A stretch of 63,526 nt of DNA, filler included, from Globobulimina sp. (Eukaryota): the NCBI GenBank assembly GCA_003354225.1. It is 21 parts of 21 records of this genome, joined end to end, with 100 filler letters (N's around TTAATTAATTAA, not from the genome) between each part and the next. Parts side by side here need not be neighbours in the genome. Positions count along the whole stretch, not along the records: positions 21,216 to 24,145 come from PIVH01004319.1; 20 more parts are not named here. One strand, given 5' to 3'. The notes beneath the pieces are model-generated. The model had not been told where the DNA came from and ran no database searches. It saw only the letters and a list, made by a program, of their open reading frames with translations. The translations under genes and the position numbers were made by a program. Positions 3,060-24,245 of this stretch are shown in pieces (the stretch's first letter is position 1; every line of letters begins with the position of its first letter).

Positions 3060-4468
3060 ATGCCTGAATCCACTCCGTTTGCGAAACTGTTGACTAAATC
3101 ATCAAAATCCAATGGCTCTCATGATTTGCAACTTTTGATTGATAATATAGTATTAAATAACACCGTGTCCGAATTGAATGTAAATGATACAATGCCTGAA
3201 ACAATACCTTTTGGGAAACTTTCGACAAAACCATCGAAATCATGTGATTTACACCTTTTGATTGACAATTTAATATTAAATAATACTGTGTCTGCCCCGG
3301 GAAACAGCGAAGAGGATATGACTGTGACAGAAAACGGATACAAACGAATTTATAAAACATGTGACACAGAAAACGAATTCAAACGAACTTATTCATGTGA
3401 ATCAGTTGGAAGTTATGTTACCTGCACAATCAAGAAAATCAGCAAAAAAAAACATAACTCAAATATGCATATGTCTGATAATTTAGTGATCATGAAAGAA
3501 GCCATGATTTTAAAGCATTTAACAACTGATTATAAACTGACTGGTAATTATATCGTTAAATATGTTGATTATTTTGAGTCTGCAACACATTGTTATTTAG
3601 TAACAAAATATATGGATGGCATGGATTTAGCACAATTTATAAAGAAAGCACATAAATATCTGATTAACGGGCAATTGAAATCAAAAAAATATCAAACACG
3701 AATTAAATATATTATGTGGCAGCTGTCAGCTGTACTCCTTTGGTTACATAACGTTTATCATTGTATGTTATGTCTGTGTCTCTGTTATGGATTGCTAGAT
3801 TATGCAATCTGTTATGGAATATATCATATTTGTATACAGGTTGCCATTTAGATCTATGTCTGTCAAATATAATGATTAACAATGTAGGATTCATAGAGAA
3901 ATGTGATGGCTCAGTGCGTATTTATGGTGCAATGTCTGTTCAATTAATTGGTTTCAGCGCAGCGGAAATATTTAATACTGATTACTTAGAAACTGTGGCA
4001 TATTTTAAATGTACCAAACAACTGCAAAGTGGTACTGTGAATCATGAACGATTTAAAGCACCGGATGTGTTTTTTGACGAATGTTGCTATAATGCAAAAG
4101 CTGCCGATATGTGGTCTTTAGGAGTTATATTTTATGAGTGTATGACTGGAGAATCGCTTTTTAAACAACCAAAGAATAAATGCAGTTATTCTACAGTGAC
4201 CGGAAATAATTTGAAACAATGTTTGGTTGCAAATAATTTTTTCTCTAAATTTAAAAACGGATCGTTTTTGTTATTAAATAGTTTGTTACAATTTGATGAA
4301 AATAAAAGATTTACCGCTTTGAATATGGTTGAAAATAAATGGTTTTCCAAATATTATAACAAATATCAAGAAGAAATGAAGAAAAAAATAGTGTCTGATA
4401 GTAAACGTTTGGAAAATAACAGAGAAACTATGAACAATTTTCCATATTATAATTACTCGACATGTTAA
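3060..4468 (+). CDS. Divergent Ser/Thr protein kinase, probable pseudokinase; intron 3763-3839
   Basis: Splicing gives YHCCHLDLCLSNIM (catalytic loop). Also KAPDV and ADMWSLGVIFYECMTG. DFG is replaced by GFS and no Gly-rich loop is evident. The N-terminus carries a ~35-aa tandem duplication. Confidence 0.8.
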
Positions 4469-18185: not shown

Positions 18186-20780
18186 GATGGATATTCACAT
18201 ATTCGTTGATAAATAACACTATTATATAATATTGGTTTTTTTTCTGGAACATGCGTTGGATGAAGAAAGGCACCGCCTCCACCACTTACAATTAATGTTG
18301 CACCCACATTCGGCATACTATTAATTTTATTATAATCCGAAATATCACATTCTGATTGCGATCGTTTCAAATTTGATGTTGATTTTAGTGCTACCGGTAC
18401 CGGCATGCTATCATTGCTGTCATTATTCTTATTGGTACTTGACATCATATTGTATTTTAAACCGGATTGTATGGCAGATTCTGATTCATGTCTGGTATAA
18501 TTATGAATGTCGCCGGCTAAGCGTAACCGTAATCGGTCACTGCCAATAACATTATTAATTAAGTATTGCAGGTTTGAGCCATAGTTTTCATGTTCATGAT
18601 CATTTATTATCCAATCTGGCAAATGCGTCATTATTATTACACGTTCACTTCGATTTTCATCATCAAAATAAGTTTCCACGATTTTGGCAAAGTACTCAAA
18701 TTGTTTTGGATCAATATCACCGTTTAAGGCATAATCCGCCGCAAATATCCACCTAAAAATAATCAGTACATAGAAACATTTGTCAATGTTCAAAACAAAT
18801 ACTTACCAATTATGTGGCAGCGCAGTCACAAAATAACTCGATGTCTGTGGCAAATACCAGCCCCCCAACCAATTGCGACTACAGATAAATCTGCAAAATG
18901 TCTGTAAACCATCGTACCAATCATGATTGCCTGGTATTATTAAACAGGTTGGACCTGCGTAGGATTCTAAATCACCATTATCCGGCAACTCCGGTTTGCG
19001 ATATGATATTTCTGGGCATATATTCCCTGCTTTTAAATTATTAATAATATATTGTGGCGGACGCATTGCGTCTTCAAATACCCTGAAAAACTTTTGTTGA
19101 AAATTCAATGCTGTGGGTCCAGGATAGGATAAATCACCACCAATCAGTAACAATTTCGCGCGTTTTAGTGTTATATCATTGGTTCCAATTAAGTACGGCT
19201 GTGCTAATAACCTCGCAATCTCGTAACCAGAATGAAACCCATCACCACAATCAGCCATAAAATCAAACCATAATTCATTTTTATTTTGCAAATAACCAAA
19301 ACACGATGAATTGCATTGTTCATAATCTGTCAATGCTGATGGACTTCTATCTATATTCGAAAAGATAATACTTGAATTCGAGTTAGATTGCTCTATATTG
19401 GCATGTTCCATTGATGCAAAAGAAAGAGTATAATTTATTTTTGCTTTTTTTCGCTGCTGTTTTTTCTGTTTTTCGTCCCTATTCGTAATAGCTTTCAACG
19501 CATCCAATGACTTATTCAGTTCTCTCTTATCATAGCGATCCAAAAAGATGCCCAAAGCGATCACAATATCCAACAACACCCAGCCGGTACTCATAGCGAA
19601 CCAGGATACCATGGGATGAATGTTACGCGGCTCTGCAGAGTGCACAATGCGGCGAATAATGGTATGTTGAATCACAAGCGTTGCTTCATTTGTTTTTAAT
19701 TCATTTTCCAAAACCATATCAGTGTTCACATCAGATGACGGTGACCTTGTTGCCATCTCAGATGATGGCGATTTTGTTGCAATATTTGTTGGTGCTGCTT
19801 CAGTCACGATTTCAGTTTCGATATATTCAGTAAGTTGATTCAAATCAGATTCTGAAAAGAATATGAACCTCTCCTTAGAAGTGCCTTCAATGAGATAATT
19901 AACGCAAATTATAGTAACACCAGTTAACCACATGGTTAATACCGGTGGTATGTCGGTATAATTTTTGTTGCCAGTCCCAGACAATGCGACTGTTTGGAAT
20001 AACTTTTGGCAAAATATGACTGATCCATCCACTTGAAAGCCAACTGATTTTTCACTGAATATCTCGAAGGTATTGGCATTGCCGCAGGTCGCATATAAGG
20101 TGGAGCAGGCCAAGGAGATGAAGGCTGAGGATTGCAATATTTCAAATATGCGCTTTCGAATTCCAATGTGGAATACAAATATACGATTTAATATGAGACG
20201 GAATGTAGCATTTATTATGGAGACAGTGAACACTGTCAAAGCATAAAAATAAGGAAATAATGCTAAGGGTTCTTCGACTAAATAGTATAAAATAGGCAAA
20301 TGAGAGAGCATGGAAATGAACAACCAGCAGTATATGAAATAGACCAAAAACGAATATCCGGTAAACTCTTTGTTGCGGATATATCGCAGTTGATAGATTG
20401 GTGAGGAAAACAATAAAAATGAGATGAATAATATCAAGTATACTAATGATATGGTGGCGGTGGAGTGTTTTATTATTATTGTACTCAAATGATGTGGCGC
20501 GTTTTGAATGAGTGATTCAAAGAATTTCGATGTATTGGATGTATTGTCATTAATATTGTTTGTAAATTTAGCGTCAAGCTCTTCGAATTTAAATGATGTT
20601 GTCATAAATTGACAGAAATTATCATAAGATATGTCTGCATAACGAATCCAAACCAATAATGAAGATATGGTTAATAATGACAGTAAATCTGATCTGCGAA
20701 ACCACCATGGCAGTTTGATTGGGACTGCATGTGCTACAAATTTACGAACACGTGAAGGTGTATTTTTATTGCTTAACCCT
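18186..20780 (-). CDS. Multi-TM calcineurin-like metallophosphoesterase (family of plant At4g11800-type proteins); partial; intron 18753-18806
   Basis: WFDFMADCGDG, IGGDLSYP, IPGNHDWYDG, THLP, AGDIHNY and VSGGGGAFLHPTH motifs, preceded by several hydrophobic helices. Confidence 0.9.
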
Positions 20781-21215
20781 AACCTTAGACAAAGTTCTCT
20801 ATAGTATTTTGGAGCAATACCACCATCAAATGTCCATTGCCTTGCTCGCTGCTAGTATCCGTTACAGTATTACCAGTCATGCCGGCATCAGTGTGTATGT
20901 CAACAAAGTTCTTGACGTTTGACAACACGTCTTTGGGGAATTCCTTCCTATGTCCCACCGCATACTTGTAGAGTTCAAGGATATCCTTAGCATCACCTCG
21001 CACAGCTTGTGGTCCACGCCTCTTCTTGATCTGCATCGCCTGTAGACCGGGCTTGCTCTCAACGGATATTCCATTGTCCTTCAAGTCTTCAATATATCGC
21101 CCATGTGCCGCTTTGNNNNNNNNNNNNNNNNNNNNNNNNNNNNNNNNNNNNNNNNNNNNTTAATTAATTAANNNNNNNNNNNNNNNNNNNNNNNNNNNNN
21201 NNNNNNNNNNNNNNN

Positions 21216-21364
21216 AAGGAGCACCAAAAGGAGATGAAAACGGCCAACCAGGAATATGTAGTGATGGTGGTGATGGTGGATATGGGAGAATAAGAATAGA
21301 CACCGGGAATCTCAATAAAGTTGGCAATGTAGTACCAAATGTTGGATACACCGCAAAATATTAA
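21216..21364 (+). CDS. 3' end of a Gly-rich protein
   Basis: The frame reads GAPKGDENGQPGICSDGGDGGYGRIRID…AKY* from the contig edge. Confidence 0.45.
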
Positions 21365-21614
21365 ACTTTTTGTACACAGTTAATTATAGTAATTAATTTT
21401 CAAGTTAATTTTCAAGTTCATTCAAGGAATACAAAGGGTGGTACGTATAAATTAGTTGTGTGTAATATTGGTCAAGGTACAGAGGTACAGCTTTTATCAT
21501 ATAGGCCATTGTAGTCATGTATTTATATAACTACACATTTTATAATATCTTTACTACAAAAAAAAAGGAAAATCTTTTTTTGCAAAGTCAAATAGTCAAT
21601 CATCGCGCTTAAAA

Positions 21615-23592
21615 ATGTCGACACGAGACACAAGACGACCAAACAGCAGAAGAGTAAGGAAAAAGAGATCAACCACACTTGATCCATCCACAAATATTGG
21701 CCTTTATTCCTCTCTCTCATCGTCACCATCACGAAAACCATATAAAAAATTAAAACGTGATCATAAATCTGAGCGTGCCATCAAATCGAAATCGCCAAAC
21801 TATAAAAGCAAACACAAACATTCACGGCATAGAGCAGCCTCTGATGCGCCATTAAAAGCCGAATTAGCAGCAATTTCACTTAAATTAGATACAAAAAGAA
21901 GCAAGAAACGAAAAACGAAAAAATATAACTCACAAACACCTGTCAATGATTACTTTGATTCGTACCCATATGCCACAAACGGTGATTATAAAAAGGCCAA
22001 AAAATCGAGCATGACACCAAAAGTGTCATTGTCAACATCCATCCAAGAATCATTATTTTCGAGCGATGATGAATTGAATGACAATAATCATATAAATGAT
22101 GCACAGAATAATAACAACAGCAGCAACCTGAACGAAATTAGAATATTAACAAATTCACACTCAATAACCCAAGCAAGCAAAAATTTAAGTTTTGTACATA
22201 AAAAGCTAAAAAAAAAAATAAATTCCAACTTCTCCCAATTTCACGGCGCATTAAACGAGCAACAAAGCAAATTATTGGACGATTTAGAAACTTTCTACGC
22301 CGACAAACAAGGCGAAATCATATCGATTGAACGCAAATTATTTGAAAATGCTCGAAAATCTAAAAATATCAAAGAAAAAGAGTACGAATTTGATACAAAG
22401 ATTAATTTCGTTATCAATACAACAAAAATATTGTCTCAAATTGACAAATATGGCCTCATTGAAACCACTAAAAATGCCAAAAAAAATCCAATTGACAATG
22501 AAGTGGATGACTTAAAGAGCGATGAAGATGATGTCTGCGATGATGGTGACAATGAGACCGATACAATGGCCATGAAACAGCAATTCATTTTAAGTGAGAT
22601 CCAAAAGCAAACCATGAATAAATTGGATGTGGTGATATTAATGGAAAAAGAGGCTAAGAAAAAAGCGCAGCAAGCGGCCAAATTGACGCGTGAAGTGGAG
22701 GACGGATTGGCGTTCATTGCAGAGCGAAGGAAGATAATTGCCGATAAAATCGCCATTGCAACGCCAGAATTGGAGAAGGCGCGAGAAGCGGTGAGGGGCA
22801 TTGATCCAAAAGATATCAATGAGATAAAATCGCTTAAATCGCCACCGAGTGTTATTGAAAATGTTATTACTGCGACTGTTATGATTTTAGGTTTGTGGAA
22901 ACGGCATACATTTGTATGCTTTTTTGTACTTGAAATGTTTTCTATGTTTTCGCACTGCACTGCGCATTGTATATTTGTGCATTATTTGGTATACAAAGTG
23001 CTTCCGAATATGTACGTACTTGTTTTTTTTTTTTACTTTGATGTGCAGCGATTTTATGTAACTGCGTGCGTTGCGTATATATTTTTAGCTTTTTTGTATG
23101 TGTTAAGGTCATAAGATTGGGCAATGGCGAGATGTGCAAAAGGTGTTAAGTTATAAATTCAAGCCAGAATTACTAAATTTTGACACTTATACATTATCGC
23201 CGGCGACTCGCAAGGCAGTGTACAAGAAATATTTAGGAAGCTCAGATTTTAATTATTCGCGCGTTTATTCCGGAAGCAAAGTATGCGGCTCTTTGTTAAA
23301 TTGGGTACTTTCCCAAATTAAATATTCACGATTATTGGATGTTATTATCCCGTTAGAAAAAGAGGTAAAAAAATTGAAAAAACAAAGTAAAAAAAAAGAG
23401 AAATTGGCTAAACAATTAATGAAAATTGTAAACGAATTGGAAGAAAATATTAAATTATATACAAATCAATGCAATCAAATGATTGATCATATCATAAAAT
23501 CTACACATTACGAATTGCAACAATTTAGCGATAAATTACAACCATTAAACGATAAATTTAACCAATTATTAAGCAATAAGGTGCTTGACTGA
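21615..23592 (+). CDS. Stand-alone dynein heavy-chain stalk/microtubule-binding-domain protein (586 aa); intron 22891-23107
   Basis: The spliced C-terminal half (ATPELEKAREAVRGIDPKDINEIKSLKSPPSVIENVITATVMILGHKIGQWRDVQK…FNYSRVYSGSKVCGSLLNWVLSQIKY…IPLEKEV) matches the cytoplasmic dynein CC1-MTBD-CC2 region. No AAA motifs are present. Confidence 0.88.
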
Positions 23593-24245
23593 CGCACTCC
23601 ATTTTTCTCTCCCTCTTTTTCTTCTTTTCTCCTCTTTTTTTCATTGTCTTTTTTTTTATATTTTTATATATTTTTTTCTGTTTTTTTTTCTGTCTTTTTT
23701 TCTTGGGGTTTGGAACTATATTTTGTGTTTATTTTCTAGTGCTTTGTTGAATAAATGCCTGACACCGATGCAGTAACACTCGAGCAAAAAAAAGTGATGA
23801 TCGATCCGAAGATAAAACAGTTTTCAGTAAAAACTAAGTAAAAAAATTTTTAAGTTCATCCATGCGCCTTGCACTTAATTACATTTCCTCTCTTCTTTTT
23901 TGATGTTGTCTGATTTGATCATGCAATCCTTCCAATCCTCCAAATTTCCCTGGCATTCCACGCATATTATTCCCTAATAAAATGTACACATCATACCATA
24001 ATAAATCAACACAATGAATATATACTTAACTCAATTTCTCTTTGGCCGCATGCATTTGTTCAGGCGATAACTTTGTTTTTGCGCCATTTTTATTCAACGA
24101 ATTAAAAATTGGCCCTTCGCCCAAATCGCTAAACGGGGCGTTATTNNNNNNNNNNNNNNNNNNNNNNNNNNNNNNNNNNNNNNNNNNNNTTAATTAATTA
24201 ANNNNNNNNNNNNNNNNNNNNNNNNNNNNNNNNNNNNNNNNNNNN

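Follow-up and report, generated by a model that had tools for sequence, protein, structure and literature searches.

A motor-less dynein stalk protein in Globobulimina sp. with relatives in other foraminifera

Until now the dynein stalk and its microtubule-binding domain (MTBD) have been seen only as integral components of a motor larger than 4000 residues. In that motor the stalk lies between AAA4 and AAA5 of the heavy chain, and the registry of its two coiled-coil strands, CC1 and CC2, is driven by the ATPase ring and sets the affinity of dynein for microtubules. Here we describe a gene (21615-23592, + strand) in a 63,526-nucleotide stretch of the Globobulimina sp. assembly GCA_003354225.1, hereafter the window (positions 1-63526), which encodes a protein of 586 residues whose C-terminal 269 residues are a whole dynein stalk, comprising CC1, a 124-residue MTBD and CC2. 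Judged from its sequence, this protein is not a dynein heavy chain: the AAA ring, linker and tail are absent, and 586 residues leave no room for them. Its structural design, a basic disordered N-terminus followed by a coiled coil and a stalk and MTBD of the dynein-1 type, is conserved in other foraminifera, and we regard it as nearly certain that these proteins form a real motor-less gene family. Taken as a whole, the evidence is best explained by a motor-less stalk protein that would act as a passive, bipolar, microtubule cross-bridging microtubule-associated protein, a reading to which we assign a probability of about 0.55.

A dynein stalk at the C-terminus

Strand CC1 (residues 318-383; 22566-22763, + strand) was delimited by its match to the Pfam family PF12777 (MT), by phmmer alignment to dynein stalks and by a helix with a predicted local distance difference test score (pLDDT) of 84-98. 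The MTBD (residues 384-507; 22764-23352, + strand, split by an intron) was placed by its bracketing prolines P384 and P507, by invariant residues and by superposition on the structure 5AYH, and CC2 (residues 508-586; 23353-23589, + strand), the C-terminal end of the protein, by PF12777 and by a helix at residues 526-627 (pLDDT 78-97) of P0003, the closest full-length homologue, which is 59.5% identical to the window protein. The window gene was scanned against Pfam exon by exon; PF12777 matched residues 339-425 of exon 1 at profile positions 44-129 (22.0 bits) and residues 17-130 of exon 2 at profile positions 155-267 (20.6 bits), and the two matches are collinear on the profile. Each exon falls just below the gathering cut-off of 24 bits only as a result of the intron dividing the domain; unsplit homologues lie above it, with all five of those scanned at 25.7-51 bits and further relatives at 28.3-62 bits, and the window protein belongs to the PF12777 domain family. 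No AAA family in Pfam was matched by either exon at E ≤ 1, by any of five full-length homologues at E ≤ 0.01 or by nine further relatives, P0035 among them, at E ≤ 0.001, and the Walker A pattern GxxxxGK[ST] is absent from the window protein.

When P0003 was compared with all PDB sequences, the best match was the stalk of cytoplasmic dynein-1 (5AYH/3WUQ; 95 bits, E = 5e-26, one gap in 217 residues), followed by the cytoplasmic dyneins of Dictyostelium (85 bits) and yeast (77 bits), dynein-2 (66 bits) and axonemal dyneins (at most 55 bits). By score, the stalk thus appears closest to cytoplasmic dynein-1, and cytoplasmic dynein heavy chains also account for the long proteins with a name at the top of the profile matches. 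We modelled the structure with AlphaFold on P0003 using a 65-row alignment, which superseded an earlier fold from nine sequences that had left the MTBD at pLDDT below 50. The resulting model reached pLDDT 84-98 in each ten-residue block of residues 361-620, and it superposed on 5AYH ("the entire dynein stalk region") with a target-normalised template modelling (TM) score of 0.90 and a root-mean-square deviation of 2.0 Å over 249 columns.

The residues that define the fold were compared between 20 family rows and 43 full-length motors in mouse dynein-1 numbering, which was checked at E3289, K3298, E3378 and R3382 against PMC4987762 and at K3299 against PMC6629372. P384 (in ATPEL) and P507 (in IIPLEKEV) correspond to the pair of prolines on either side of the mouse dynein-1 MTBD; proline is present at the first in 20/20 family rows, at the second in 18/20, and at both in 43/43 motors. 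The KSPP motif falls on the PP that is invariant in motors (20/20 family rows, 43/43 motors). Mouse positions 3285, 3311, 3312, 3333 and 3393 are identical in all 20 family rows, 3388 in 19 and 3409 in 18, and all seven of these fold positions are kept in every one of the 43 motors. The MTBD measures 124 residues in 17 of the 20 family rows, as in the window protein, compared with 125-126 residues in dynein-1.

The family stalk shares with that of cytoplasmic dynein-1 (PF12777 "MT"; 3WUQ, 5AYH, 3ERR, 6RZB) an antiparallel CC1/CC2 hairpin with a six-helix MTBD tip, together with the bracketing prolines, the PP turn, two tryptophans and a glycine. It differs in its identity of only about 25-35%, in the replacement of K3298, R3342 and R3382, in an MTBD charge of about +7 rather than about 0, and in its context: the AAA1-6 ring, linker, tail and C-terminal domain of the heavy chain are missing, and the family stalk ends the protein. 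Alignment to heavy chains is confined to their stalk; in the blastp alignment of the window protein to the best motor heavy chain (28.6% identity), only positions 3091-3341 of 4152 are covered. An earlier note, made from the sequence of this stretch alone, had already read the C-terminus as CC1-MTBD-CC2, picked out the two prolines, taken KSPP as the equivalent of the motor NPP, seen no Walker motifs and proposed a search with the Pfam MT and AAA profiles, and the collinear PF12777 matches, the dynein-1 stalk match, the model, the aligned motifs and the lack of AAA matches bear it out on each of these points.

The gene and its foraminiferal relatives

The reading frame begins at the ATG at 21615, the first ATG past an in-frame upstream stop. 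Exon 1 (21615-22890, + strand) holds codons 1-425 and the first base of codon 426; it is followed by a phase 1 GT..AG intron of 217 nucleotides (22891-23107, + strand) and by exon 2 (23108-23592, + strand), which includes the TGA stop at 23590-23592 and whose C-terminal end is shared by P0003, P0004 and P0008 in our alignment A1. Joined by coordinates, the exons give a spliced coding sequence of 1761 nucleotides that translates to 586 residues, with its sole stop at the end. We checked the splice by aligning contigs of four public sequencing runs (X1, X3, X6 and X8) to the window contig that carries the gene, positions 21216-24145 (PIVH01004319.1). Contigs of all four runs tile exon 1, and the exact joint ("skips 217, GT..AG (cut +2)") is present in those of three of them, X3, X6 and X8, from three studies, with X1 contigs reading through the intron. 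Transcriptome-derived homologues are continuous over the same point (...VMILG|H...). We regard the 217-nucleotide joint as the spliced form in independent data, short of formal RNA proof, as the kinds of run are not on record. The coordinates, the translation and the contigs of these three runs agree with the start, intron, stop and length of 586 residues that the earlier note had given.

Two forms of one protein, P0004 (Nonionella stella) and P0005, bear on the same position: P0004 carries an in-frame, Cys-rich insert of 19 residues exactly where the window gene has its intron, which looks like intron retention in the transcript and shows conservation of the intron position. One X1 contig has a differing joint, from 22897 to 23123 with ends GA..GC and intervening letters that are not known; in our view this contig comes from an allele or paralogue whose intron does not align, and the joint is not a splice. 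The X3, X6 and X8 contigs have no cover over 21412-21509, 22980-23077 and 23666-23763, and this was not used as evidence. At the 5' end, an X3 contig (record 10) matching 21583-22380, together with the in-frame stop upstream of the ATG, defines a minimum 5' untranslated region (21583-21614, + strand); 21 unmatched letters stand ahead of the start of this match, and a spliced leader or a further 5' exon was considered as their source.

Runs X6 and X8 also contain a variant that is about 95% alike. In the 32 differences listed (45 others lie outside the list), synonymous changes number 20, where chance would predict 20%, and of the 12 replacements 11 fall before codon 227; the variant further carries two in-frame insertions of 6 nucleotides.

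A first homology search returned seven proteins of 330-692 residues, 39-59% identical and all with PF12777, and all seven are of like design wherever the sequence is complete. A profile search of 1.84 billion representatives then gave 1943 matches at E ≤ 0.001, the top ones being further members of 547-726 residues that match the family profile from the N-terminal region through to the end. All 11 relatives with a source name are foraminiferal and represent five genera: Ammonia sp., Elphidium margaritaceum (two), Nonionella stella (four), Bolivina argentea (three) and Globobulimina turgida (one), the last a stalk-only record of 207 residues. The members have a common order of parts, namely a basic cluster with TLDP, short Ser/Thr-Pro motifs, a long helix, YEFD…QQI…YG, an acidic linker and the stalk. 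Complete members end in the same C-terminal residues, and in every full-length member the stalk stops no more than 16 residues from the C-terminus. The complete motor-less gene that the earlier note had proposed, with N-terminus, coiled coil and stalk/MTBD, thus recurs in Ammonia, Elphidium, Nonionella and Bolivina.

The family is set apart from motor stalks by several measures. A stalk hidden Markov model (HMM) built from 11 family rows scores family members at 206-450 bits and motors at no more than 193 bits. In a quick maximum-likelihood tree of 127 stalk regions, the 20 family rows and three further rows, P0034, P0035 and P0124, which are other short or AAA-less proteins, stand together across one branch with a Shimodaira-Hasegawa-like approximate likelihood ratio test (SH-aLRT) support of 98, and all 104 remaining rows lie on the opposite side. 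The tree left out 15 redundant rows, most of which were cluster-mates or fragments of retained rows, as well as rows with fewer than 180 HMM positions; it is unrooted and has no labelled dynein-2 or axonemal outgroups, so that it speaks to the cohesion of the family and not to the date of its origin.

These results also bear on the possibility of an artefact, in which the gene would be a heavy-chain fragment or pseudogene, or a chimeric assembly of an unrelated N-terminal half and a stalk exon. The contig is only 2.93 kb long and is part of a chain of short contigs, which leaves room for such an error. Yet contigs of several runs tile over the N-terminal half, CC1 and the spliced junction, which also answers the chimeric join that the earlier note had named as a possible refutation; homologues of four other genera have the same N-terminus, part order and, where complete, C-terminus; and the variation in the variant of X6 and X8 is mostly synonymous. 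Furthermore, identity to any motor stalk is about 29%, whereas for genuine heavy-chain fragments in that set the identity to motors is in the range of 45-69% and alignments extend past the stalk; as weak evidence, a search for longer fused forms among proteins of 1100-3140 residues gave only one match at E ≤ 1e-10, with 31% identity. We therefore consider an artefact extremely improbable.

The family comprises several paralogous subfamilies, and foraminiferal species carry several paralogues each. P0020, P0021 and P0162 (from Elphidium margaritaceum and an unnamed source) make up a subfamily with an extra conserved domain of about 90 residues before the basic region, for which Pfam gave no match at E ≤ 0.001; this subfamily has more motor-like residues, with K at mouse positions 3299 and 3382. 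P0027 (Bolivina argentea, 604 residues) contains two MTBD copies, and both it and P0030 (347 residues) have an MTBD with short coiled-coil flanks, interrupted by inserts, a motor-less design unlike that of the window protein. P0035 (Nonionella stella, 1965 residues) has a family-like stalk at residues 173-454, and its remaining roughly 1500 residues matched no AAA or other Pfam family.

Searches for foraminiferal or Reticulomyxa dynein, for PF12777 and for the dynein MTBD returned no published description of such a protein, supplementary gene lists not being covered by them. We regard as new both the joining of a full stalk to an N-terminal half that is conserved and the foraminiferal expansion of this design. 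That a conserved and expanded family keeps the whole stalk and discards the engine implies that the module has the capacity to evolve on its own as a microtubule-binding, or re-targeted, unit. A practical consequence is that a PF12777 match in a foraminiferal genome need not mean a dynein motor.

The N-terminal half, microtubule contact and function

Ahead of the stalk, residues 1-180 (21615-22154, + strand) form a basic, Ser/Lys/Arg-rich region that is predicted to be disordered, as indicated by its composition and by pLDDT below 50 in both P0003 models; the matching part of P0003 is residues 1-209. Residues 1-190 have a net charge of +24, a pI of 10.3, 24% S+T and four S/T-P sites, and alignment A1 shows conserved motifs here, a basic cluster then TLDP, followed by KSKSP, SQTP, SMTPKVSLS and SSDDELN. 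A helical module mapped from P0003 comes next (22155-22460, + strand), consisting of a long helix at residues 181-247, which corresponds to P0003 helix 217-283 (pLDDT 84-94), and a back-folding segment at residues 254-282. An acidic, disordered linker (residues 283-317; 22461-22565, + strand) leads into the stalk; its counterpart in P0003 has pLDDT below 50, its length differs among homologues, and residues 301-317 carry a net charge of -8 with 53% D+E. The description of an S/K/R-rich N-terminal half with a coiled coil in the earlier note agrees with this composition and with the long helix that follows. No Pfam family was found in the N-terminal half or the helical module except for a weak match of exon 1 to Itf52_C (E = 0.15), and a search with P0003 residues 1-340 returned three matches including itself, all family members.

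A homodimer prediction for two copies of P0003 residues 205-335, run with no alignment, gave an interaction prediction score from aligned errors (ipSAE) of 0.68, against 0.02 for the best of three controls. In benchmarking, this value was reached by 21 of 30 one-chain pairs and none of 23 single chains, and in eukaryotes by 17 of 29 and none of 30, respectively. The runs agreed in at least 92% of contacts with a partner pLDDT of at least 76, and the closest contacts (246:246, 260:234 and 271:223) are those of an antiparallel pair. The prediction supports, but does not show, that the helical module is an antiparallel homodimer and the molecule bipolar, with one stalk at each end. In geometry this resembles the antiparallel coiled coils of TRIM-like dimers, a resemblance hinted at by the antiparallel predicted dimer and by a B-box cluster lead with a feature score of 0.83; Pfam found no zf-B_box or RING in the exons or homologues. 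In the protein atlas, the helical module scored 0.91 to an unnamed eukaryotic cluster and below 0.9 to ARA70, SPATS2-like and B-box clusters, from which we draw no conclusion.

The likeliest role to be inferred for the protein is that of a non-motor microtubule binder or cross-bridge. Such a function, which the earlier note had put forward as that of a non-motor microtubule-associated protein, cross-linker or competitor, is plausible because the fold residues are kept, the MTBD has a charge of about +7 and the predicted antiparallel dimer fits a cross-bridge. Binding to microtubules appears probable; action as a dimeric cross-bridge is a more tentative proposal with chances somewhat short of even. 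As a non-motor microtubule-associated protein, it would use the stalk hairpin as a rigid spacer of about 10 nm, a length that follows from the 66 residues of CC1, with the strongly basic MTBD serving as a passive foot. Two copies would pair antiparallel through the helix at residues 181-247, and this pairing would yield a bipolar dimer with a stalk and MTBD at each end. Flexible acidic linkers would carry the stalks and give them reach, and the two basic N-terminal tails, probably phospho-regulated, would strengthen the attachment to acidic tubulin tails electrostatically. Without using ATP, a dimer of this kind could link adjacent microtubules or gather them into bundles like those of reticulopodia.

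PRC1/Ase1/MAP65 proteins are passive microtubule cross-linkers in which a dimerisation rod bears a folded microtubule-binding domain at either end, and their basic disordered regions raise the affinity and hold phosphorylation sites. The likeness of the family to them lies in the proposed logic only: there is no sequence kinship, and here the binding domain is of dynein origin. Closer in substance are the engineered fusions of a stalk/MTBD to seryl-tRNA synthetase (SRS; 3ERR and SRS-DYNC1H1 3260-3427), which likewise present a motor-free stalk anchored at its coiled-coil base; the SRS-DYNC1H1 3260-3427 constructs bind microtubules in vitro (PMC6629372). Those are laboratory chimeras whose registry is fixed by the fusion, whereas the window gene is natural and encodes a full-length stalk, the base of which is free at CC2, the C-terminus, and joined through CC1 to the acidic linker. 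The family is in this respect a natural experiment on the registry and affinity of a stalk without its ring. Microtubule bundles occur in foraminiferal reticulopodia (PMC2111848), and the proteins are candidates for organisers of these highly dynamic bundles, although the link to reticulopodial microtubule dynamics is contextual.

Several points weigh against a cross-bridging microtubule-associated protein. It was the homologue P0003, and not the window protein, that was folded and used to predict the dimer; solved stalks are part of the training data of the predictor, and the alignment used for the fold included stalk fragments of motors. The dimer score expresses the model's own confidence only, and a role as nuclear localisation signals would be an equally good reading of the N-terminal basic clusters. 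Basic residues on H1, H3 and H6 that are reported to touch tubulin have also largely been replaced. Position R3342, presumably a tubulin contact in mouse dynein-1, is basic in 0/20 family rows and in 41/43 motors. K3298 and R3382 (PMC4987762) and K3299 (PMC6629372) are reported as tubulin contacts in mouse dynein-1; in the family, K3298 is basic in 0/20 rows (41/43 motors), R3382 in 5/20 (41/43 motors), and K3299 is K in nine and P in 11 of the 20 rows, with 43/43 motors basic. The window protein itself has D, P, S and S at K3298, K3299, R3342 and R3382, respectively.

There are also compensating basic residues in the domain. Basic residues are kept at R3306 (20/20 family rows), K3385 (19/20) and R3334 (18/20), and a new Arg that motors lack is present at mouse position 3379 in all 20 family rows. 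E3289 is Lys in 10 of the 20 rows, a change that lengthens dynein runs (PMC4987762). Overall, the MTBD has a median net charge of +7 in the family compared with 0 in the 43 motors. Our reading of this pattern is that the coupling helix H1 may have been freed from its motor role and that binding may have moved towards general electrostatics.

An alternative explanation of the same residues is that the fold was kept and the target changed, the basic MTBD binding away from the canonical lattice site of dynein; helical-filament foraminiferal tubulin, free tubulin or another acidic polymer would be candidates. The loss of basic character at K3298, R3342 and R3382 and the new Arg at 3379 are in line with such a shift, as is the conversion of foraminiferal microtubules into helical filaments (PMC4990898). 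Nevertheless, R3306, K3385 and R3334 are still basic in most or all rows, the 124-residue length and all fold residues of the MTBD are retained, and subfamilies resembling the dynein heavy chain hold K3299 (9/20) and K3382 (5/20), which points to a gradual loss that fits relaxed coupling better than a new ligand. On balance we consider a changed target unlikely.

The protein could alternatively regulate transport, either as a static foot occupying the dynein or kinesin site as a roadblock or decoy, or as a tether for cargo bound at its N-terminus. A stalk derived from cytoplasmic dynein-1 could share the dynein binding site, the conserved short motifs of the N-terminus are possible docking or phosphorylation sites, and organelle transport in foraminiferal cells is fast and bidirectional (PMC13371060). 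The changes at the contact residues, however, speak against tight competition for an identical site, no recognisable cargo-binding domain was found by Pfam, the protein atlas or the search with the N-terminal half, and the predicted bipolar dimer suits bridging better than blocking. We hold this explanation to be less likely again than a changed target.

Passive cross-bridging could also be part of a broader scheme, which we offer as speculation and consider unlikely. Foraminifera may have cut the registry-sensitive stalk and foot from cytoplasmic dynein and made of them a toolkit of ATP-independent linkers, including bipolar dimers, the tandem-MTBD protein and the 1965-residue protein, in which CC1/CC2 sliding could give a load-dependent grip as in the motor. 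If true, this would imply passive, tension-sensing cross-bridges tuned to divergent tubulin and to transitions between microtubules and helical filaments.

Flanking and neighbouring sequences

Twenty-one contigs of about 2.93 kb, their length shrinking slowly along the chain, make up the window and are joined by N44-TTAATTAATTAA-N44 linkers. Because these are separate contigs, genes on the two sides of a linker are not genomic neighbours. No second copy of the stalk gene was found within the 63.5-kb window.

The earlier note had taken the flanks of the gene inside its contig to be non-coding; this did not hold, as the flanks carry the 3' ends of two other genes or open reading frames (ORFs), neither of which matched a Pfam family. 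Upstream, the Gly-rich 3' end of an ORF on the + strand (21216-21364), truncated by the start of the contig, ends at 21364; it is covered by contigs from several runs, which diverge from the window after about 21398. Downstream, the end of a convergent gene on the - strand occupies 23776-24145, up to the right end of the contig. In an X3 contig, 23776 is directly preceded by adapter letters and a T run, which is what a poly(A) end on the - strand would give. Contigs of X6 and X8 skip 57 nucleotides of this gene (23976-24032) with non-canonical ends; strains may differ here by an in-frame indel, and an intron is the less likely reading.

On a neighbouring contig of the window, 18803-20851 on the - strand is an open frame of 682 residues, unrelated to the stalk gene, with several hydrophobic stretches and a C-terminal part that, judged by eye only, resembles a metallophosphoesterase motif.

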